This document shows, piece by piece, positions 1,171 to 57,640 of a stretch of 60,841 nucleotides of DNA (position 1 is its first letter; each line of letters opens with the position of its first letter). Source of the stretch: Eubacteriales bacterium (GTDB lineage: Bacteria; Bacillota; Clostridia; Oscillospirales; SIG627); contig JAZSDT010000083.1 of assembly GCA_045531285.1 (NCBI GenBank), forward strand, positions 1 through 60,841, given 5' to 3'. The position numbers and the translations under genes were made by a program. The notes beneath the pieces were generated by a model. That model was not told where the DNA came from, did no database searches, and worked only from the letters and a program-made list of their open reading frames with translations.

Positions 1171-1451
1171 CCAAGAAGAAAAATACCATTGTAAACACCA
1201 GAGCCAACTCGAAGAAAGCCAACCACTTATTGAATAATAACAAAACGGAGAAAGCTGAATGCAAAGTCCCAATTCACCTTAAAATGACCTTGACCATTAA
1301 GGAAGCAGCGGAGTATAGCAATATCGGCATTAACAAAATCGATAGTATGCTTCGTGCCCCTAATTGTCCGTTTGTGCTCTTTGTCGGCACTAAAAAGCTT
1401 GTGAAACGCAAAGAATTTGAAGAATATATCAGCGATAAAATAATAATTTAA
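1167..1451 (+). CDS. Excisionase-type helix-turn-helix DNA-binding protein (Xis-like)
   Basis: ATGA overlap with the stop of the upstream recombinase. The C-terminal part, MTLTIKEAAEYSNIGINKIDSMLR...LVKRKEFEEYI, resembles the small excisionase/MerR-type HTH of Tn916-like elements. An internal start at 1284 is possible. Confidence 0.6.
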   Translation: MTKKKNTIVNTRANSKKANHLLNNNKTEKAECKVPIHLKMTLTIKEAAEYSNIGINKIDSMLRAPNCPFVLFVGTKKLVKRKEFEEYISDKIII

Positions 1452-1504
1452 GCAACAAAGTTAAAAATTTACAAAAAAGCCTAAGATTTTTTTGTAAAGT
1501 CACT

Positions 1505-1532
1505 TGAGGAAAAGGGCATCTTATGATATAAT
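1505..1532 (+). promoter_or_regulatory. Putative sigma-A promoter for the integrase gene
   Basis: TTGAGG (1505-1510), 16-nt spacer, TATAAT (1527-1532), preceded by TG-like extended context. Lies about 50 nt upstream of the ATG at 1582. Confidence 0.3.
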
Positions 1533-1581
1533 CTATATGTAGCAGTATGCTCTTTTTCTCTCTGTGAGAAAGGAGTTAACA

Positions 1582-2763
1582 ATGGGAAAGAATCTCAAAG
1601 GTAAAGACTGCGGTAAGGGTATCTACCAAAGGAAGGACGGATTATACAGCGCACGCTTTGTTGATAAGGCAGGCAAAAGGCACGAAAAATACTTCGGGAC
1701 AGTTCCCGAAGCGCGTAATTGGATAGAAGAAGCAAAATTCGCTGACATGCACGATGGTGTTTTCGTAGCTACGGAAACTACGGTTGATGAATGGTTTGAT
1801 TTTTGGATTGAAAATATCGTTGGAGATTTAGCTCCTAATACACTTCGCAACTACCGAGAACGATACACATTCAACATTCAGCCCGTTATGGGGAAAATGT
1901 TAATAGCAAATGTAAAACCGATGCATTGTAAAAAGGTGTTCATTCAGATGGATGCCGACTATGCCGGCTCGACCATACGCCAAACATTCATTACTATGGG
2001 AACAATGTTCAAAGCGGCAAAGATGAATGACCTCATTGCAAAGCACCCTATGGACGGCGTTCGCTTTACAAAACCCGTTCGTGCAACAGATGATATTAAG
2101 TTTCTCACCCGTGAAGAACAGCGTACTTTCCTTGAAACTGCGAGGCGTTCTCACAACTACAATCAATACGCCCTCATCCTCGAAACAGGGCTACGAACAG
2201 GTGAAATGATTGGTCTAACATGGGATGCTATTGATTTTGAGAAAAGGACGCTTACAGTGAATAAAACATTGGAGTACCGACACGCACAGCAGTTTTGGCG
2301 TGCAGGACCACCCAAGACACAGCAAAGCTATCGCACCATTCCTCTGACAGACAAGGCATATGGTATTCTCAAAGACATTTGGGATAATCGAAAAGGGAGA
2401 AAGGAATCACCTCTGCTCGATGAAACATTAGAGTATGTTGATAGAAGAACGGGCGTAACCTCGACACTCGTTTTGCGTGACCTTGTTTTTATCAACTATC
2501 GCACCGGTGAACCGGCCAAAAACAGTTCTTATGATACCCACCTTTACAAGCTCTGCGACGAAGCAGGGATTACACGCTTTTGTATGCACGCTTTACGCCA
2601 CACATACGCCACTCGTGCTATCGAAAGCGGGATGCAGCCAAAGGTACTGCAAAAGCTACTGGGACACGCCAGTATAAAAACAACAATGGATAGGTATGTT
2701 CACGTGACTACCGATTCATTAGACCAAGCTGTAAGGCAATTTGAGTTAAATGGGGTTTTCTGA
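1582..2763 (+). CDS. int: Tyrosine integrase, Tn916-Int-like (N-terminal arm-binding domain plus catalytic domain)
   Basis: ORF 1564..2763. AGGAG RBS at 1571-1575, then ATG at 1582. N-terminus [28 protein letters not shown]; catalytic motifs [38 protein letters not shown]. Confidence 0.9.
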
Positions 2764-7503: not shown

Positions 7504-8742
7504 TTATTTGCAGGACTTTTTCTTTGAAAAATATATTCTTATGCTCAAAAGTATCAAAACAGTACATATTGCAAATATGTCCGAGGACAAAAGACCCGCA
7601 CGCATTGATACCTGCTCGGCTGTGATAGAAAATCTATCGGCAATCCTTTGAGCAACGGGCATAGCGGAAACCTTATCTGCTATAACGCCCACAAGCTGAG
7701 GCGCAAGTGCTGTGCCGAGGTCTCCGCCTGATGCCATAAGAGCATATATGGCAACGCTTGCACCGGGGTATTTATCTCCAACTATAATGAGTGTTCCGGG
7801 CCATAGCATTGAAACGCAAAGACCTGTAAGTCCGCACGCAACAAGCGACAAAACCGGATTGAGCGAAAGCGCGGCAACGGTATAGGTCACGACTGCACCG
7901 ACTGCAATAGTGAGCATAACGCTCATTATATTCTTTCCGTATTTTGCGTACAGGCTTCTGCCAAGTCCCAGAGTAGCGGCAAAAAATGCCGTACCGAATA
8001 TGTCCCCCACGACCTTCGGCAAGCTTACAGCCGATTCAAGATAGCTTGAAGCCCATTGAGTCATAACGCTTTCGGTTGCACCGCCAAAGAAGATACAAAG
8101 AAAGCAAAGGACGATTCCCGCCGAGAGAAGTCCTGTACCGGTTCCCTTTTCACCGCTTATGTTCATTTCGGGAAATTCAGCTTTGCAGAAAAGGAGCATT
8201 GCCAAAAGAGGAATGGCACACAGAATAATAGGAAGAACAAACCACATATTCTCGCCCACGATTCTTAAAAACAAAGTGCTGAATATTACTACTGCAACAG
8301 CACCCCAGGCGTAGCAGGAATGAAGCTTTGACATATCGCGTTCGGGGTTTTCTGAGGGGAGTGCGGCAATGATCGGGCTGAGCAGCACCTCACACAATCC
8401 GCCGGATGCTGAAAATATCACCGTCCCCAACGCCATCCACAAATATGCCGCCGACGGTACTGCAAGGGGCATCAGTGAATAAATGAGAAAGCCCGAAGCC
8501 GTCAAAAACGGAGTGAGCTTAACAGCCTTTTGTACGTTGAATATTGACGGAAAGAACGTAAAAAGGAGGTCCATACCCAACTGAGTAACGAAATTTATAA
8601 CTACCAGCGTACCAAGGAGAGTATAAGATATCCCGTACATTTCACGGAAGGTCTCGAAAAGCAGTGCAGGTACAATAATTATTATAGCCATTGACACGCC
8701 TGAAACGTAACAGGCATATTTGGTAAACGTATAGTTTTTCAC
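7504..8742 (-). CDS. MFS transporter
   Basis: About 12 predicted TM helices. The GTG at 8742 is preceded by a GGAGG RBS and overlaps the MATE stop (GTGA). The ORF-track start at 8805 is probably an artefactual extension. Confidence 0.75.
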   Translation of the reverse strand: MKNYTFTKYACYVSGVSMAIIIIVPALLFETFREMYGISYTLLGTLVVINFVTQLGMDLLFTFFPSIFNVQKAVKLTPFLTASGFLIYSLMPLAVPSAAYLWMALGTVIFSASGGLCEVLLSPIIAALPSENPERDMSKLHSCYAWGAVAVVIFSTLFLRIVGENMWFVLPIILCAIPLLAMLLFCKAEFPEMNISGEKGTGTGLLSAGIVLCFLCIFFGGATESVMTQWASSYLESAVSLPKVVGDIFGTAFFAATLGLGRSLYAKYGKNIMSVMLTIAVGAVVTYTVAALSLNPVLSLVACGLTGLCVSMLWPGTLIIVGDKYPGASVAIYALMASGGDLGTALAPQLVGVIADKVSAMPVAQRIADRFSITAEQVSMRAGLLSSDIFAICTVLILLSIRIYFSKKKSCK

Positions 8743-10109
8743 GATAATTCCTCCAAGGATCTTATTTTCTTTATCCACTTTCCGCTTCTGAGTCTTATTA
8801 CGCACCAGAACGCCTTAAGCACCTGGTCTACCTTTAAAAAGAAATATATCCAGAACGCAGGAAGGTGTAATACAAGTCCTGCGATTATACCCAGCGGTAC
8901 AGAAGCGATCCAAAGAAAAATATTATCTGCAAGCATAAGCATTTTCGTATCTCCGCCGCCTCGGAGAACTCCCTTGGTCATAATACTGTTTGTTGCCTGG
9001 AAAAAGATTATAATGCTTATTGCCAGCATTAACTGACGTGTAAGCTCCTGGGTCTCTTTGGAAAGGTCATAAGCCCTTATCATAGGCTCACTGATGAGCA
9101 AAGCAATAAGTGCGGCAACAGCTCCAAAAACGATTCCCAATCCGAGAAAGGCATAGCCTTGTCTTGATGCCTTTTCCCTGTCGCCTTCTCCCAGTGTTCT
9201 CCCTGTAACTATAGAGCCCGATTGGGAAAATCCCTGAATCATAACCGAGCTGAGCTGTTGTGTTACAGCGGTAACCGCATTGGCGGCAACAAAATTTTCA
9301 CCCAATCTGCCGATAACCATAGCAACCGAATTATTTCCCAGAGCAAGTATTCCGTCGCTGACGAGTACGGGAATGCTCATTCTGATATATTCCTTCCAAA
9401 GATTGCCCACAGGCTCGAAAAGGTGCTTTATTCTGAAGCCTATTTCTTTATCTTTTAAAAACATATATCCGCAAATAACGGCAAATTCAAATACGCGGGC
9501 AATGAGAGTACCCAGTGCGGCACCCGCTACGTCCATTTTAGGTGCGCCGAATTTTCCAAAGATGAATATATAGTTTGCACCTACGTTAATAAAGAATGCG
9601 GCAATTGACGTATATAAAGGCAATCTGACCTGACCTACGTTTCTCAAAACGATGGTACAGGTAAGCGAAAGCCCCAACAAAAAATATGTAACTACCGAAT
9701 ATTCAAGGTATCTGACGCCGTAATTTATAATTGGGACTTCCGTGGTGTATATTTTCATTATCAAAGTGGGAGCAATGGCTGTAGCAACTGCAAAAAGCAC
9801 AGACATCCCAAGACAAAGACGAAGCATAATAGACACTGTCTTTTTCAGTGCAGCTCTGTCCTTCATTCCGTAGTACCGCGCAACAAGTACAGAAGCGCCC
9901 ATACCTATACCCATACAAAAGATGTGAAAAATATTAATAAACTGGTTGGCTAGAGACACAGCAGAAAGCTGTGTTTCGCCCACCTTTCCAATCATTATGG
10001 TATCCATCATATTGACACCTGTGGTTATAAATCCCTGTAAGGCAACGGGAATGGCTATCATTGCCACTGTTTTATAAAAAGACTTATCTTTTATAAATAA
10101 ACTGAACAT
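8739..10109 (-). CDS. MATE-family efflux transporter
   Basis: FYKTVAMIAIPVALQGFITTGVNMMDTIMIGKVGETQLSAVSLANQ is a typical MATE N-terminus. 12 TM helices. ATG at 10109 with an AGAGG RBS (the ORF-track GTG is at 10127). Confidence 0.85.
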   Translation of the reverse strand: MFSLFIKDKSFYKTVAMIAIPVALQGFITTGVNMMDTIMIGKVGETQLSAVSLANQFINIFHIFCMGIGMGASVLVARYYGMKDRAALKKTVSIMLRLCLGMSVLFAVATAIAPTLIMKIYTTEVPIINYGVRYLEYSVVTYFLLGLSLTCTIVLRNVGQVRLPLYTSIAAFFINVGANYIFIFGKFGAPKMDVAGAALGTLIARVFEFAVICGYMFLKDKEIGFRIKHLFEPVGNLWKEYIRMSIPVLVSDGILALGNNSVAMVIGRLGENFVAANAVTAVTQQLSSVMIQGFSQSGSIVTGRTLGEGDREKASRQGYAFLGLGIVFGAVAALIALLISEPMIRAYDLSKETQELTRQLMLAISIIIFFQATNSIMTKGVLRGGGDTKMLMLADNIFLWIASVPLGIIAGLVLHLPAFWIYFFLKVDQVLKAFWCVIRLRSGKWIKKIRSLEELS

Positions 10110-10193
10110 ATTCTTACCTCTTTTCACTAAAGAATCATTGTATCATACGTTCTTCAATTTGTCAAAGGATATTGCACTGACAATATACAAAAA

Positions 10194-10471
10194 GCGGCTA
10201 GCAGCCGCCGGCAAATCTCGCCTATCGTAACCTTTAAGTATGGCTCTACAACGTAAAACGGCGAGGTTGATTTAATGCAATTTCCTAGTAAACAAAAATG
10301 CAGCTAGCAGCCGCTGGCAATTCTCGCCTATCGTAACCTTTAAGTATGGCTCTACAACGTAAAACGGCGAGGTTGATTTAATGCAATTTCCTAGTAAACA
10401 AAAATGCGGCTAGCAGCCGCTGACAATTCTCGCCTATCGTAACCTTTGAGTATGGCTCTACAACGTAAAAC
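10194..10471 (+). repeat. 106-bp structured intergenic repeat, 2.6 tandem units (locus A)
   Basis: Units start at 10194, 10300 and 10406 (exact 106-bp period). Unit sequence is GCGGCTAGCAGCCGC..TCTCGCCTATCGTAACCTTTAAGTATGGCTCTACAACGTAAAACGGCGAGGTTGATTTAATGCAATTTCCTAG... Confidence 0.95.
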
Positions 10472-10524
10472 AGTTATGGCATAATAATTGAGAAATTTAC
10501 CATAAAGCGAAAAAGGCTGATTTT

Positions 10525-11646
10525 TCAATCAGCCTTTTTTGCAATTCTTTCTATTACTGCCGCCGCTTCCGCACGCGTTGCAAAATTTTTGGGGAGAAAA
10601 CTGCTTCCGCTACCTGTCATTATGCCGTTTTCGGTTGTCCAGGCAATGTTGTCCTTTGCCCAATCTGAAATATTATCCTTATCCGAGTAATTGAGCTTTA
10701 CAGAAGATGCCACGTTCTTACCCTTAAATTTCGCCCAACGGCAAAGCATTGTAGCCATCTGCTCACGGGTTATATTGCTGTCGGGAGCAAATTCGGTATC
10801 ACTTACCCCAAAAACAATTCCTTTTTCATTTGCCCAAGCAACCGCCTTTTCGTACCAGCTTCCTTTTTGTACGTCGGTAAATTTGCATTCAACCGTGTCG
10901 GGCTGTTTTTCAAGCCTGTAAAGAAGTGTGACAAACATAGCTCTTGTAACGTTTAATTTAGGAGCAAATTCGGTTGGACTTACACCGTTGATTATTCCGT
11001 TTTCGTTAGCATATTTCACCGAGCCGTAGTACCAGTCTGATTCCTCAACGTCGTTAAAGGGATTCTTCCATTCCACCGGCTTATCGGGAACGGTTGGTGT
11101 AGTAGGAGTTGTAGGTGTAGTTGGTACAGTTGGTACAGTTGGTACGGTAGGTGTAGTTGGTGTAGTGGGTACGGTAGGTTCGGGTGGTTCTTTACCGTTG
11201 ATTTTAACAGTACCGGAAGCAAAGCTGGACTCTACCGGGGTAGAATTATTTTTGGCAACGGTGGATGCACTTATTTCATAAGAGCCTGAGAATGCATCGT
11301 CCTTTACAACAAATTCAACTGTGCAAAGCTCTCCTTCAAACTTCTGTGAATCCGTCAATCCAATTACGATAACGCCCTTGTCGCTATCAAAGGTAGGCGG
11401 AAGAATAGTTAGGTCGGAAATGGCGCTATTTTCCGTAAAGCCTGTAAACTCAAGCACAGAAGTGTCAAAGTTAAGCTTGGAAACAGCAAAAGAATTTGCT
11501 TCCTCTGTACACTTAAGTGAAAGAGTCAGCTTTACACTGTCGCCTGCATCAGCCTCAGCGCTTGACAAACTAAACACTGCCGAGCCTGCAAAAGCCGTAA
11601 GTGACAGCACAAATATCAATAAAAAAGTAATAATTAATTTTTTCAT
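10525..11646 (-). CDS. Cell-surface protein: signal peptide, cohesin-like domain, Pro/Thr linker, three SLH repeats
   Basis: MKKLIITFLLIFVLSLTAFA signal peptide. Cohesin-like GDSVKLTLSLK...LEFTGF...GELCTVEFVV. PTTPTTPTVPTVPTVPTTPTTPTTPTVP linker encoded by short tandem DNA repeats at about 11090-11170. SLH-type repeats (WYYGSVKYANENGIINGVSPTEFAP, WYEKAVAWANEKGIVFGVSDTEFAP, WAKDNIAWTTENGIMTG). Confidence 0.75.
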   Translation of the reverse strand: MKKLIITFLLIFVLSLTAFAGSAVFSLSSAEADAGDSVKLTLSLKCTEEANSFAVSKLNFDTSVLEFTGFTENSAISDLTILPPTFDSDKGVIVIGLTDSQKFEGELCTVEFVVKDDAFSGSYEISASTVAKNNSTPVESSFASGTVKINGKEPPEPTVPTTPTTPTVPTVPTVPTTPTTPTTPTVPDKPVEWKNPFNDVEESDWYYGSVKYANENGIINGVSPTEFAPKLNVTRAMFVTLLYRLEKQPDTVECKFTDVQKGSWYEKAVAWANEKGIVFGVSDTEFAPDSNITREQMATMLCRWAKFKGKNVASSVKLNYSDKDNISDWAKDNIAWTTENGIMTGSGSSFLPKNFATRAEAAAVIERIAKKAD

Positions 11647-11730
11647 AGCAATAGCCCCCATTTCGGCTCTATTATAGCAAACAATACGGAATTTTGCAAC
11701 ATCTTTTTATACTCGACTGTATGTTTTTAA

Positions 11731-11757
11731 ACAAAGTCGGCACTTTTGCATATTATA
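11731..11757 (+). promoter_or_regulatory. Sigma-K-like (late mother-cell) promoter candidate
   Basis: AC (11731-11732), 16-nt spacer, CATATTATA (11749-11757) fits the AC-N16/17-CATAnnnTA sigma-K pattern. Lies 35 nt upstream of the ATG at 11792. Confidence 0.35.
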
Positions 11758-15407: not shown

Positions 15408-15430
15408 TTTTATACCCCCTTTCCAAAAAA

Positions 15431-15639
15431 GCGGCTAGCAGCCGCTCGCAATTCTCGCCTATCGTAACCATTGGGTATAACCCTACAATGTAAAACGGCG
15501 AGGTTGATTTAATGCAAATTCCTTGCATATAAAAAAGCGGCTAGCAGCAGCCGGCATGCTCGCCTATCATAAATTTTGAGTAAAACATACAATGTAAACG
15601 GCGAGGTTGATTTAATGAAATTTCCTAGCATATAAAAAA
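15431..15639 (+). repeat. 106-bp repeat family, 2 tandem units (locus B)
   Basis: Units start at 15431 and 15537 (106-bp period). The second unit is more diverged. Lies in the divergent araC/GH4 intergenic region. Confidence 0.9.
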
Positions 15640-17186: not shown

Positions 17187-17201
17187 TTATACTAACTCAA
17201 A

Positions 17202-17300
17202 GCGGTCAGCGACCGCCGGCAATTCTCGCCTATTGCAATCTGTATATGTGCCAAACAAATCAGAACGGCGAGATTGGTTTAATGCAATTTCCCGGTATAT
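17202..17300 (+). repeat. 106-bp repeat family, single unit (locus C), abutting the brnQ start
   Basis: GCGGTCAGCGACCGC hairpin variant, CTCGCC...GGCGAG, GATTGGTTTAATGCAATTTCCCGGTATAT tail. Ends 20 nt before the brnQ ATG. Confidence 0.9.
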
Positions 17301-18645: not shown

Positions 18646-18738
18646 GGTCAATGCTCGCCTATACCAAGCTTTGAGTATAAACCTACAACGTAAAACGGCG
18701 AGGTTGATTTACCACAATTTCGCGGCATATAAAAAAGC
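18646..18738 (+). repeat. 106-bp repeat family, single unit lacking the 5' hairpin (locus D)
   Basis: GCTCGCCTATACCAAGCTTTGAGTATAAACCTACAACGTAAAACGGCGAGGTTGATTTACCACAATTTCGCGGCATATAAAAAAGC. Confidence 0.85.
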
Positions 18739-22442: not shown

Positions 22443-24314
22443 ATGGTAAAAAACGTTATAAAAGACATAGAAAACTCACGTATATTCACAAAAGACGAAC
22501 AGCTTTCAATGAAGCTAGAGGGTTCGTTTGAAAAGGCTGTCCGTTTCATCGAGCGTAATCAAATATGCGATGTTGGACTGTGGCAGAAATTTGTAGAGCT
22601 GTTTCGCTGGCACGAGGACGGCTGCGGAGATGCATGGGTCAGCTGGAGAAGTGAATACTGGGGCAAGATGATGCGCAGTGCGGCAATGGTGGTAAAGTAT
22701 ACCAACGATGACGGCATGTACAAAATATTGGAAAACAGCGTAAGAGACCTTTTGACCACTGCCGACAAACACGGCAGAATTTCGGGTTACTCTGTAGAGC
22801 AGGAATTCACACACTGGGATATCTGGGGCAGAAAGTACGTAATGCTCGGTATGTTCTACTTTATGGAGATATGCCGTGACGAAAAGCTCAAAGATGAAAT
22901 GACCTATGCAATCAAGCGTCAGGCTGATTATATGATAGAGCGTATCGGACACGGTAAGCTCGACATAAGAGAGTGCAGTTCAAACTGGGAGGGACTCAAC
23001 TCCTGCTCGGTGTTGGAGCCCATTGTCAGACTGTACAAGCTGACGGGTGAGCAAAAATATTTTGAATTTGCCGAGTATATTATCTCTACAGGCTTTATAC
23101 AGTCTGCGAACATAATAGAGCTTGCATTTGAAGACAAGGTTTCACCTCACGAATATCCCGTCGTAAAGGCATACGAAATGATGTCCTGCTTCGAGGGACT
23201 TTTGCAGTTTTACTACGTTACGGGTATTGAAAAATACAAAACGGCTATTCTCAATTTCGGAAAACGCATTATCAACGGTGAGCTTAGTATAATCGGATGC
23301 AGCGGATGTACTCACGAGCTATTTGACCACACTGCCGTAAGACAGACTCAGACGGACTACGAGGGAGTTATTCAAGAGACCTGTGTAACGGTTACCTGGA
23401 TGAAATTTGCCGCAGCCGTTTTGGAGCTGTCAGGAGACGTAAGCTTTGCCGACTGTATAGAACAGTCCTTCTATAACGCATACGCGGGAAGCTTTAATAC
23501 ACAGAGAATTCCTTCCGTAAGATACCGCGTACCCGACAGGGAGCACATAGTACCTCAGGTACTTCCCTTCGACGCCTACTCACCTCTTGTATCAAACGTA
23601 AGAGGACGTGCTACAGGAGGCTTCAACTACTTCCCTGACGGTACCTTCTACGGATGCTGTGCTTGTATCGGTGGTGCGGGCGCCGGAGTTATTCCTCAGA
23701 TTGCCGTTATGAAAAGCCAAAACGGAATTGTGCTGAATTTCTACGAAAAGGGTATAATAGAAACTAGCGGAATAAAGCTTTGTGTGGATACCGATTATCC
23801 CTACGACGGAAAAATCACCATTGAACTTGAAACGGCTGCGAAAGCCTTTGATATAACTCTGAGAGTGCCTCAATGGTGCGACGGTGCAAGTATCACAGTA
23901 AACGGTCAGTCACAGCCCTGTCACAAGGGATACGTAACTCTTAGCCGTCAGTGGACCGACAAGGACGTCATAGTACTCAATCTGCCAATGGCAGTAAAGC
24001 GTGTTCTTCCTCCCAAAGAAGCTGTAAACTGTGATATCTTTGCAGGGTACACCTACGGACCGCTAGTGCTTGCTGCCGACAAGAGAATAACCGATCCCGA
24101 CGCAATACTGGACGTTGTGGAAGGCACGCAAAAGGCAGTATACTGTCCCGAAATAAGAGAGGCTGAGCTTTGCCTTGAGGTGACACTTGCAAACGGTGAA
24201 AAGGCTCGTCTCATCGACTACGCCTCAGCGGGCAAGACCTGGTCTGAAGAATCCCGTTGCGCTGCTTGGTTAAAAAGGCGGAGAGTCTCCGCAGACAATT
24301 CTCGCCTATCGTAA
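22443..24314 (+). CDS. DUF1680 / GH127-GH146-like glycoside hydrolase (beta-L-arabinofuranosidase-like)
   Basis: 623 aa. QETCVTVTW (E-T-C) and FYGCCACIGG (C-C) resemble the Glu/Cys3 zinc-site and Cys-nucleophile motifs of GH127 HypBA1-type enzymes. The last 12 codons and the stop lie inside a repeat unit. Confidence 0.6.
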   Translation: MVKNVIKDIENSRIFTKDEQLSMKLEGSFEKAVRFIERNQICDVGLWQKFVELFRWHEDGCGDAWVSWRSEYWGKMMRSAAMVVKYTNDDGMYKILENSVRDLLTTADKHGRISGYSVEQEFTHWDIWGRKYVMLGMFYFMEICRDEKLKDEMTYAIKRQADYMIERIGHGKLDIRECSSNWEGLNSCSVLEPIVRLYKLTGEQKYFEFAEYIISTGFIQSANIIELAFEDKVSPHEYPVVKAYEMMSCFEGLLQFYYVTGIEKYKTAILNFGKRIINGELSIIGCSGCTHELFDHTAVRQTQTDYEGVIQETCVTVTWMKFAAAVLELSGDVSFADCIEQSFYNAYAGSFNTQRIPSVRYRVPDREHIVPQVLPFDAYSPLVSNVRGRATGGFNYFPDGTFYGCCACIGGAGAGVIPQIAVMKSQNGIVLNFYEKGIIETSGIKLCVDTDYPYDGKITIELETAAKAFDITLRVPQWCDGASITVNGQSQPCHKGYVTLSRQWTDKDVIVLNLPMAVKRVLPPKEAVNCDIFAGYTYGPLVLAADKRITDPDAILDVVEGTQKAVYCPEIREAELCLEVTLANGEKARLIDYASAGKTWSEESRCAAWLKRRRVSADNSRLS

Positions 24315-24378
24315 CCTTTAAGTACGCCCACACAAGATAAGACGGCGAGGTTGGTTTAATGTGATTTTTCGGTATTAA
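24278..24378 (+). repeat. 106-bp repeat family, single unit (locus E) overlapping the 3' end of the GH127-like CDS
   Basis: GCGGAGAGTCTCCGC hairpin variant, CTCGCCTATCGTAACC...GACGGCGAGGTTGGTTTAATGTGATTTTTCGGTATTA. Confidence 0.9.
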
Positions 24379-41875: not shown

Positions 41876-41996
41876 TATTTTCATCCTTTTCGTGTTTTTA
41901 TATATCATAACATATTTTTCGTAAATTGAAAAGAGTTTTTTTAGTTTTTACAGTATTTTTTTATATATTGACAATTTGGATGATGACAGCATAAAA

Positions 41997-42132
41997 ATAG
42001 GCGAGATTTGCCAGCGGAGGCTCTTCGCTTTTTACGTACCCAAAAAAGTATTTACTACAGCCTCGCCGTTTTGCGTTGTAGGGTTATATTTAAGGTTACG
42101 ATAGGCGAGATTTGCCAGCGGTCGCTGACCGC
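41997..42132 (-). repeat. 106-bp repeat family, about 1.3 units in reverse orientation (locus G)
   Basis: CCTCGCCGTTTTGCGTTGTAGGGTTATATTTAAGGTTACGATAGGCGAGATTTGCCAGCGGTCGCTGACCGC plus an upstream partial copy ATAGGCGAGATTTGCCAGCGGAGGCTCTTCGC. Ends 1 nt from the yunB stop. Confidence 0.9.
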
Positions 42133-42133
42133 A

Positions 42134-42808
42134 TTATCCTGCTTTAAAATCTATTATTTCGCCTACCGTTTCATCGTCCAGATTTTCAATGGAAGTATAG
42201 GCATCCGGTACACGTCCTACTATGACGGTATCTGCAATAACCATACTGTCCGAAACCTTTACGCTATTGTGCTCACCGAGTACGATAACCCCCAATATGA
42301 TCTCCACCTTCAAGGTTATTCTGTGCCACGATTGGTTTATTCCCACCTCGGAAAAACTGCTTTCCACAGAAGTAATAACACTATCGGTTGGTATCAGCTT
42401 TATAGAAAGATTAAAGCCTCTGCCCGACAGCAAATACATTCCCGTAAGATTACCTATGGGTATCTGAAGAACACGCTTACTGTCGTTTGCCAAGATTTCA
42501 AGTATCTTTAGAGAAACATCGTTTTTTAAACGGTTTATGTTTACAATGTCCGAGGAAAGAGATAGCACATTTCCCTCGGAATCGCAATTAAGAGCAACAA
42601 GGTCGCTGTACGAAACGCTGTTTTCTTCAAGCACCGACTTCACTGCACTGTTTATCACCTGAGTGGCGTGGGAACGTGAGTACTGTACGGCTCTTGCGTT
42701 GATTATGGGAAGCAATTGATTAAAGGAGTAAATAAACAAAAGCACTAAAAACAGCAGAGTAATCAGAATTATAATAGCTCTCCGCCTGACTTTTTTCACT
42801 TTTTTCAC
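42134..42808 (-). CDS. yunB: Sporulation protein YunB
   Basis: N-terminal TM helix, then the pattern ...AVQYSRSHATQVINSAVKSVL...IPIGNLTG...LSGRGFNLSIKLIP..., typical of YunB. 224 aa. Confidence 0.75.
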   Translation of the reverse strand: MKKVKKVRRRAIIILITLLFLVLLFIYSFNQLLPIINARAVQYSRSHATQVINSAVKSVLEENSVSYSDLVALNCDSEGNVLSLSSDIVNINRLKNDVSLKILEILANDSKRVLQIPIGNLTGMYLLSGRGFNLSIKLIPTDSVITSVESSFSEVGINQSWHRITLKVEIILGVIVLGEHNSVKVSDSMVIADTVIVGRVPDAYTSIENLDDETVGEIIDFKAG

Positions 42809-44744: not shown

Positions 44745-44771
44745 TAGAGTACCATAATCAAAAATAAAAAA

Positions 44772-45089
44772 GCGGTCAGCGACCGCTGGCAAAGCTCGCC
44801 TATCGTAACCTTTGAATATATCCCGACAATGCAAAACGGCGAGGTTGATTTAATGCAATTTCCTAGCATATAAAAAAGCGGCTAGCAGCCGCTGGCAAAG
44901 CTCGCCTATCGCAACCTTTAAATATACCCCTGCAATGAAAAACGGCGAGGTTGATTTAATGCAATTTCCTAGTATACAAAAAAGCGGCTAGCAGCCGCTG
45001 GCAAAGCTCGCCTATCGCAACCTTTAAATATACCCCTGCAATGAAAAATGGCGAGGTTGATTTAATGCAATTTCCTAGTATACAAAAAA
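44772..45089 (+). repeat. 106-bp repeat family, 3 complete tandem units (locus H)
   Basis: Units start at 44772, 44878 and 44984 (exact 106-bp period). Units 2 and 3 are nearly identical. Confidence 0.95.
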
Positions 45090-46125: not shown

Positions 46126-46218
46126 TAGCGACTAGCAGCCACCGACAAAGCTCGCCTATCGTAACCTTTGAGCATACAGCGAGATTGATTTAATGCAATT
46201 CCCTAGCATATAAAAAAT
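46126..46218 (+). repeat. 106-bp repeat family, single degenerate unit with internal deletion (locus I)
   Basis: ..GCGACTAGCAGCCACCGACAAAGCTCGCCTATCGTAACCTTTGAGCATACAGCGAGATTGATTTAATGCAATTCCCTAGCATATAAAAAAT. Confidence 0.85.
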
Positions 46219-54770: not shown

Positions 54771-54778
54771 TACTTTAT

Positions 54779-54986
54779 GGGAAATTTCTCGATTATTACG
54801 CCCTCGCCGTTTTGCTTTGTTTGGGTAGTATTGTCATAAGGGTAGGCGAGATTTGCCAGCGGCTGCTAGCCGCTTTTTCACTTTATATGAAATTTCTCGA
54901 TTATTACGCTCTCGCCGTTTTGCTTTGTTTGGGTAGTATTGTCATAAGGGTAGGCGAGATTTGCCAGCGGAGGCTCTCCGCTTTTT
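54779..54986 (-). repeat. 106-bp repeat family, variant subfamily, 2 units in reverse orientation (locus K, 110-bp period)
   Basis: GAAATTTCTCGATTATTACGC(C/T)CTCGCCGTTTTGCTTTGTTTGGGTAGTATTGTCATAAGGGTAGGCGAGATTTGCCAGCGG(CTGCTAG/AGGCTCT)CCGC occurs twice. The core between the CTCGCC/GGCGAG arms and the tail differ from the main family. Confidence 0.9.
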
Positions 54987-55001
54987 CACAAGATAGCAAC
55001 T

Positions 55002-57561: not shown

Positions 57562-57640
57562 GAGAATCTCGCCTATCGCAACGTTGTGCATACTCTCAAA
57601 AAAGCAAAACAGCGAGGTTGTATTAGATTTAATTTTCTTT
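57562..57640 (+). repeat. 106-bp repeat family, degenerate unit (locus L)
   Basis: GAGAATCTCGCCTATCGCAACGTTGTGCATACTCTCAAAAAAGCAAAACAGCGAGGTTGTATTAGATTTAATTTTC. Confidence 0.7.

Follow-up and report, generated by a model that had tools for sequence, protein, structure and literature searches.

The window, that is, the whole stretch of 60,841 nucleotides that was analysed, carries on its plus strand at 10189-10506 an array of direct repeats. Read along the minus strand, the order is a gene encoding cohesin and three SLH domains (10525-11661), the terminator of this gene (10507-10542), the three repeat units, each ending in a hairpin and a T-run, a strong promoter downstream of the array (TTGACA-17-TACAAT, 10165-10137), and an ORF at 8739-10127. 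Analysis of the window with TRF returned 10187-10471 with a period of 106, 2.7 copies and 96% matches, and an earlier note on this DNA had likewise ended the array at 10471. The third unit runs on to 10506 with a right block of another subfamily (subfamily 2), and the array therefore consists of three full units at 10189-10506; the array described before is real, but its end coordinate was too short and its 2.7 copies are three. The features of the locus are as follows.

10189-10294, plus strand: repeat unit 1, with A5, hairpin, left block, variable middle and right block, detected by TRF and by repeat search (nhmmer match to model positions 2-106, E 1.3e-33)
10194-10208, unstranded: 6-bp hairpin with a 3-nt loop, GCGGCT-AGC-AGCCGC, with more copies at 10300-10314 and 10406-10420
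10217-10265, unstranded: inverted repeat CTCGCC (10217-10222) and GGCGAG (10260-10265) enclosing 37 nt, present again at 10323-10371
10267-10294, plus strand: conserved tail TTGATTTAATGCAATTTCCTAG..., a weak promoter match not called by the promoter scan
10295-10400, plus strand: repeat unit 2, with hairpin GCAGCTAGCAGCCGC containing one A.C mismatch
10401-10506, plus strand: repeat unit 3, a hybrid with a left part of subfamily 1, a right block of the subfamily-2 type (GGCATAATAATTGAGAAATTTACCATAAAGCG) and GGCGAG lost
10507-10542, unstranded: host bidirectional terminator with A5, a 16-bp stem and T6, adjoining the 3' end of the array

In each unit (ca. 106 nt), an A-tract and a 6-bp GC hairpin precede a conserved left block (GGCAAT.CTCGCCTATCG), which some 25 nt of variable sequence separate from a conserved right block (AAAACGGCGAGGTTGATTTAATGCAATTTCC...). 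Conservation is lowest in the interior, which varies between species, and the best-conserved blocks are unpaired sequence. The two ends of the unit (5', AAAAAAGCGGCTAGC; 3', ...TTTCCTAGTATAT) have no inverted similarity to each other, so that the units have no terminal inverted repeats; the sole inverted repeat is the internal CTCGCC/GGCGAG. The hybrid nature of unit 3 was assigned by alignment to the subfamily-2 units of the window at 54772-54987. The other copies found in the window are listed below.

15425-15633, plus strand: two-unit array; the orthologous site is empty in genomes G008 and G009
17199-17299, plus strand: one unit, hairpin type TC/GA; empty at the orthologous site in G008 and G009
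18649-18730, plus strand: 5'-truncated unit without hairpin; the site is empty in G008
24272-24372, plus strand: one unit, hairpin type AG/CT, loop AGT
41996-42135, minus strand: two partial units
44766-45083, plus strand: three-unit array with hairpin types TC, CT and CT, adjoining A8, a host terminator (CTGCAACATAGTTGCAG) and a T-run
46127-46211, plus strand: unit with an internal deletion
54779-54986, minus strand: two subfamily-2 units with right block GGCGTAATAATCGAGAAATTTCC and without TTGATT, adjoining a host terminator
57564-57638, plus strand: degenerate 5'-truncated unit

A profile built from seven window copies was used for a census of the assembly (G000; 2.37 Mb, 179 contigs, 43% GC), and 354 matches were obtained at 255 loci, of which 167 were single, 77 double and 11 triple. 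All 88 arrays were head to tail. The repeats account for about 1.5% of the genome; many copies were located at contig ends, and the assembly is broken at many of these. Only 26 of the 354 matches fell inside ORFs, which cover about 90% of the genome when gene models are taken as crude longest-ORF calls. The family was detected by BLAST in 11 of 15 congeneric genomes (all but G001, G007, G009 and G013), in agreement with a covariance model, and was absent from 25 genomes of other genera (BLAST) and from 35 genomes of seven sister genera (covariance model). On these searches, the repeat family is restricted to one genus of uncultured ruminant-gut Oscillospiraceae. The bodies of the units are species-specific (75-88% identity to the G000 consensus), and copy numbers vary widely among the congeners, all genomes being MAGs in which repeats are under-assembled (G000 itself is 86% complete). 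For the protein of one flanking gene, no identical match was obtained by exact look-up, and the relatives recovered by a metagenome scan had at most 74% identity.

The hairpin is the part of the unit for which the earlier note had proposed compensatory changes. Every variant that it listed was recovered where it had placed it; the variant at 54967 is present as well, but its 'GCT loop' is not a separate form: from the opposite strand, this is the AG/CT type. In 119 full-length copies of G000, the hairpin GCGG-NN-AGC-N'N'-CCGC occurred with the inner pairs CT/AG (44), TC/GA (32), AG/CT (16) and AT/AT (3), all perfectly paired, and 230 of 309 hairpins were perfect. Covariation was evaluated on a multi-species alignment of 47 sequences from about 11 genomes, from which RNAalifold recovered the hairpin. 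Four of the six pairs were changed on both sides (50 cells), the covariation score was 0.218 compared with 0.052 in shuffles, and none of 500 shuffles reached it; all slid controls scored much lower, and 97% of the cells in the hairpin were paired compared with 88% in shuffles. The covariation claimed for the hairpin thus holds on aligned copies, and comparison of the copies supports selection for pairing. This covariation fits a role of the structure in DNA or in RNA alike and does not say which of the two is concerned.

The CTCGCC/GGCGAG inverted repeat behaves otherwise. All six pairs were intact in 171 of 212 units, and the changes in the 41 variant units were all one-sided, with no compensating change. 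The repeat is present with the 37-nt spacing given before, but it had also been described as often extendable to about 9 bp, and this was incorrect; an extension by 3 bp was found in 12 of the 171 units (7%), and 109 had no extension at all. Both halves fall in the most conserved sequence blocks, and the two best-conserved blocks have in common the imperfect inverted motif CAAY(N)CTCGCC. CTCGCC/GGCGAG is therefore conserved as sequence only and is not supported as an RNA helix, and the two blocks are most likely protein-recognition sequence.

On the minus strand, all units of the arrays at 10189-10506 and 44766-45083 were called terminator-like by the scan (6-7 pairs, 3-nt loop, T5-6). The terminator-like hairpin and T-run reported earlier for this strand are thus confirmed as a pattern, although the stem is short and weak, with an RNA folding energy of -8.2 to -8.7 kcal/mol (about -8.5 kcal/mol). 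The minus-strand unit has the form of an intrinsic (Rho-independent) terminator and is regarded here as a putative terminator.

The 3' ends of the units were compared with their surroundings in the same assembly. An A-run, a GC hairpin and a T-run were found within 14 nt of 72 of the 104 complete 3' ends (69%), whereas the same terminator test was positive for 2 of 131 mirrored 5' flanks and for 8 of 1000 random positions; the mean folding energy over 45 nt in the flank test was -15.3 vs -4.7 kcal/mol. The flanking hairpins are all unlike in sequence and are therefore host terminators. Adjacency of the 3' ends to terminators was also observed in other species of the genus. Loci between convergent genes made up 100 of 206, compared with 14% of all intergenic spacers. 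At least six convergent pairs of elements flank one common terminator in mirror orientation, and no comparable divergent pairs were seen. A contribution of purifying selection to this terminator-proximal distribution is possible. The position of elements exactly at the A-tract of host terminators had gone unseen in the earlier note.

Filled and empty forms of the same site were found in several contexts. In one paralogous pair, C56 is filled and C179 is empty with the same terminator hairpin kept, and a duplicated terminator (C58) exists both with and without the element. Between genomes, G000 is empty at C18, with one A-tract and a hairpin, where a G008-like locus (L029) is filled, with an A-tract, the element, a second A-tract and the hairpin; nine syntenic loci are filled in the G008-like MAG, and at five of these the element is missing from G000. 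Because the empty sites keep the hairpin, the terminators are host sequence, and the filled and empty sites therefore indicate gain or loss since speciation, with the insertion point at the A-tract 5' of the terminator hairpin. A-runs are present on both sides of the elements and their lengths correlate weakly (Spearman 0.25, p 0.025); the filled/empty pairs are compatible with an A-rich TSD as well as with an element-borne A-run.

Recombination among copies was assessed from the linkage of the modules. The hairpin type is almost unlinked to polymorphisms of the body (mutual information at most 0.17 bit). Of 15 pairs of adjacent units whose bodies are identical to 95% or more, 5 have unlike hairpin types, with four coordinated substitutions in the 15-nt hairpin, and the two units at 54779-54986 likewise combine 96% identical bodies with unlike hairpins (AG/CT vs CT/AG). 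Hairpin types CT, TC and AG are common to G000 and the G008-like MAG, where they are carried by unlike, species-specific bodies. This reassortment of hairpin and body, together with the hybrid units, indicates that recombination or gene conversion among copies is frequent. Adjacent units are also more alike in their bodies than random pairs (86% vs 75% identity), and local duplication or gene conversion therefore takes part in building the arrays as well.

A mobilising enzyme and a parent element were sought in G000 and its relatives, and no candidate was found among the transposase and RT genes of G000 (86% complete). No element-like DNA was present within 2.5 kb of its 11 transposase/RT loci, self-BLAST of the genome revealed no high-identity multi-copy IS, TnpB, IS256 and ISL3 were absent from G000, and the search for IS110 gave one sub-threshold match, inside a 1410-aa ORF. 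A MITE was rejected, as the units lack terminal inverted repeats and no parent IS with the same ends lies near the 11 genes. The five rve and three DDE_Tnp_1 genes of G000 were rejected as parents, their loci having no ends in common. G000 further carries two IS200-type TnpA genes, with end hairpins CCCCGGC...GCCGGGG and CCCCCTG...CAGGGGG. IS200/IS605 parentage (PATE) was rejected because these resident end hairpins are unrelated, the unit has a hairpin at one end only, and there is no TnpB. Single-strand transposition of the IS200/IS605 type leads to a near-absolute strand bias; the orientation of the elements against GC skew was 61:39, far from such a bias and similar to the gene-strand bias of 73%. 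Mobilisation by a group II intron or RT is not supported, since the one intron of G000, with an En-domain (RT/HNH) IEP, is not common to the other repeat-bearing genomes. RT, Y1 transposase and RAYT-like genes did not co-occur with the repeat across 16 genomes of the genus. A RAYT-like gene (NF047646, 64 bits, below the cut-off) was found only in G008 and in the repeat-free G013, and RAYT was rejected as the mobiliser because it is absent from G000 and from most repeat-bearing genomes.

Taken together, the array probably represents a non-autonomous interspersed repeat in three copies of about 106 nt each, which is specific to the genus, has terminators as its target and imitates this target itself. 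The element lands directly 5' of intrinsic terminators, most of them bidirectional, next to their A-tract and hairpin, and its own A-tract and hairpin copy the structure of the target. In the mechanism proposed here, a putative enzyme would recognise 'A-tract plus hairpin', probably as a DNA structure, and selection for this recognition would preserve the pairing of the hairpin and leave its two inner base pairs free to drift or to be exchanged. As every inserted copy brings a copy of the target with it, it would offer a further site for insertion, which would explain the arrays. The 5' end of the unit (A6 and hairpin) has the same shape as the target, and between neighbouring units of an array there is just one A-run, as self-targeting predicts. 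Copies would survive next to terminators because they do little harm there. On the plus strand no T-run follows the hairpin, so the element could ride in the 3' UTR, and on the minus strand it would merely add a weak terminator behind an existing one.

As to the process itself, a structure-guided mover that reads 'A-tract plus DNA hairpin' as its integration site is suggested tentatively and with some reserve; in that case the repeat would be self-seeding, a transposase orphan lacking terminal repeats, and the reassortment of hairpins and bodies would result from template switching or copy-choice during the process. An RNA-mediated variant, in which a unit ending exactly at the U-tract of the terminator integrates at A-tracts, is considered much less likely.

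Among the explanations other than a terminator-targeting repeat, the one that survives best is that the units are exapted cis-acting 3' UTR RNA elements, similar to REP/BIME, which guard mRNA from 3' exonucleases or tune termination. The covarying hairpin would be explained by selection on RNA, the single hairpin mismatches are mostly of the transition type, and at 138 of 206 loci the element follows the end of a co-oriented gene at a median distance of 4-10 nt, so that the unit falls between stop codon and terminator. We nevertheless consider this explanation unlikely. The wobble-compatible single mismatches do not favour the plus strand (27 vs 40 on the minus strand), although they are not decisive for the strand; whole units fold no better than shuffles (z from -1.0 to 0.0 on either strand), which argues against a globally structured RNA, and the best-conserved blocks lie outside pairing. 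At 68 of 206 loci there is no co-oriented gene in front of the element, and the copy number, the arrays and the restriction to one genus would be left unexplained.

Still less probable are arrays of binding sites for a host DNA-binding protein (nucleoid-associated or a regulator) that were spread by recombination and not by transposition. The inverted motif shared by the best-conserved blocks and the free reassortment of hairpin and body, a sign of frequent recombination among copies, both suit such arrays, but recombination alone cannot place units precisely at unrelated terminators or generate filled/empty pairs, and the explanation comes without a candidate protein.

In the earlier note, each unit had been interpreted as either a mobile promoter/terminator cassette, in which a sigma-A promoter would point outward from the 3' end and a terminator would lie on the other strand, or a small RNA gene of about 75 nt. 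The cassette retains two of its parts, namely a dispersed element that behaves as mobile DNA and a terminator-like hairpin with a T-run on the minus strand, the latter short and weak as described above. Its promoter is not supported. TTGATT is present in the tail, and in many subfamily-1 units it is followed 17-18 nt on by TATAAA; the '-10' of the 10189-10506 locus, however, is TAAACA, and at other loci it is TATAAA or ATATAA, without the -7 T. Under criteria of -35 and -10 hexamers 16-18 nt apart and a -10 whose second base is A and whose sixth is T, 3 of 172 units passed, and no tail was called in the two arrays scanned (10189-10506 and 44766-45083). Subfamily 2 lacks TTGATT, conservation across species is among the lowest in the '-10' columns, and the geometry of the tail is not conserved between subfamilies or species. 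Moreover, 69% of the complete 3' ends face a host terminator within 14 nt, and a co-oriented gene lies downstream at 61 of 206 loci only. The cassette as a whole is accordingly very improbable, and the note is confirmed in part as to its observations and supported in part as to its interpretation.

The small RNA gene, either a minus-strand transcript ending at the hairpin and U-run or a plus-strand one starting from the tail of the previous unit, can be given hardly any weight either, for the terminator-like minus-strand end and the covarying hairpin are outweighed by the lack of any Rfam match at the gathering score (up to E 10 only noise was returned), of a conserved minus-strand promoter, of folding better than in shuffles and of covariation in the second helix (41 variant copies), as well as by an interior that is the least conserved part and varies between species, and, to our knowledge, there is no precedent for 350 near-identical sRNA genes in 2.4 Mb.

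Small interspersed repeats such as REP, BOX, RUP, SPRITE and Correia shape mRNA ends, operon boundaries and genome assembly, and for most of them we know of no targeting rule or mobilising enzyme. The present family offers a targeting rule of unusual clarity, namely insertion at the A-tract of terminator hairpins whichever the strand, and a clear case of target mimicry, which would account for the direct arrays, and would provide a defined substrate for finding a recombinase or transposase that recognises terminators. It also calls for caution in annotating terminators, promoters and 'sRNAs' in such MAGs.

The repeat was finally compared with described systems. Class C group II introns of bacteria reportedly insert after intrinsic terminators, as Robart, Seo and Zimmerly are said to have described in 2007. 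Common to both are a target consisting of a terminator stem-loop and not of a specific sequence, and insertion beside the terminator in a fixed orientation; the introns are ribozyme retroelements of about 0.7-2 kb, whereas the 106-nt unit has no Intron_gpII match. With the BOX element of S. pneumoniae (boxA-B-C), the repeat has its modularity in common, as the hairpin, the body and two alternative right blocks reassort and hybrids exist, but BOX has terminal inverted repeats and one long stem, and the unit has neither. The REP/BIME elements of enterobacteria and pseudomonads are likewise high-copy extragenic GC hairpins located in 3' UTRs or between convergent genes and clustered in arrays, with several hairpin types per genome whose structure is kept while the stem sequence varies. 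REP sequences, which are palindromic and 20-40 nt long, carry a conserved 5' tetranucleotide, form alternating or inverted arrays (REPIN, BIME) and are mobilised by RAYT (TnpA-REP), whereas in the present family a hairpin module is built into a 106-nt unit, the arrays are strictly direct and no link to RAYT was found. As the tests for MITE, REP/RAYT and PATE failed, the family was filed under small non-autonomous interspersed repeats, as a variant.

The nearest described element is the pneumococcal SPRITE, a terminator-like repeat with an 18-bp duplex, a long U-rich tract and A-run and T-run ends, present in about 30 copies, for which no parent IS or TSD has been established (2011, PMC3049150). 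By the published description of SPRITE, the two have no sequence similarity and differ in architecture; the hairpin of the 106-nt repeat has 6 bp and lies at one end, its copies number about 350, its arrays run head to tail, and it adjoins a separate host terminator, whereas neither juxtaposition to terminators nor direct arrays are reported for SPRITE. Both are small, AT-rich, non-coding repeats of Firmicutes with a terminator-like stem and a T-rich tract, both are without an established parent IS or TSD, and both are enriched between convergent genes, close to the 3' ends of genes.

At six sites in G000, the source genome of the window, a lone hairpin of the family type is located past the 3′ end of a 106-nt element and is followed by a T-run, giving the arrangement A6-hairpin-T6 (C83:22857, C90:2384, C106:1982, C163:8132, C78:10319 and C137:~225; C-numbers denote contigs). 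This arrangement is a full bidirectional-terminator shape made of the 106-nt element's own hairpin. Within the window, the clearest case of reassortment between hairpin and body is provided by two neighbouring units of subfamily 2 (alternative right block, no TTGATT) at 54779-54986, whose bodies differ at 3 positions and whose hairpins are of unlike stem types (AG/CT vs CT/AG, four substitutions).

Two further repeats were observed in G000:
Second tandem repeat family, ~93-nt period, ~20 copies: C7:9231-9597; also C8, C113, C49 and C65, and partly the locus L047 (G000:C35:8496-11601)
~80-nt repeat with ..GATATAACACCGAAGAGATGTGTTTGCACGACATAAGACTCGTGAGATATGG.., ~22 copies: C33:8686-9022, C37:150-229, C38:4014-4093, C85, C93, C154 and C168

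The ~93-nt repeat contains a long hairpin, GAGGGAGTGCTTTTTGCTAAAAAGCACTCCCTC, and has the motif AAAACGGCGAG in common with the 106-nt element, the right block of which is at times joined to it. The ~80-nt repeat is frequently positioned immediately 3′ of the 106-nt element.

Transposase, RT and RAYT-like genes were located at the following loci of G000 and of a congeneric genome, G008:
L031 (G000:C121), 1330-2030: IS200-type element
L030 (G000:C57), 1290-2030: IS200-type element
L041 (G000:C70), 675-2580: group II intron (Intron_gpII domain V/VI match, 57 bits)
L043 (G008:C20), 1324-1839, minus strand: RAYT-like gene, 171 aa

The two IS200-type elements are divergent; each encodes one Y1 transposase (152-158 aa) and has end hairpins of its own on the left and on the right (CCCCGGC..GCCGGGG and CCCCCTG..CAGGGGG / CCTCCGGC..GCCGGAGG). 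The 598-aa RT/maturase/HNH protein of the group II intron is encoded by the sole RT gene detected in the G000 assembly. The RAYT-like gene of G008, which adjoins an XRE-type HTH gene, scored 64 bits against NF047646, short of the 80-bit cut-off; such a gene was found in G008 and another congener, G013, only, a distribution that does not track the 106-nt repeat family.

The array of 106-nt repeats in the window lies in a segment of ~1.6 kb (10146-11747), together with a terminator and a cohesin/3xSLH gene. In G008:C1 and G009:C43, the corresponding syntenic regions of two congeners, this segment is missing and the flanking genes are separated by 44-126 bp. The encoded cohesin and 3xSLH protein looks like a cellulosome-type anchoring scaffoldin.
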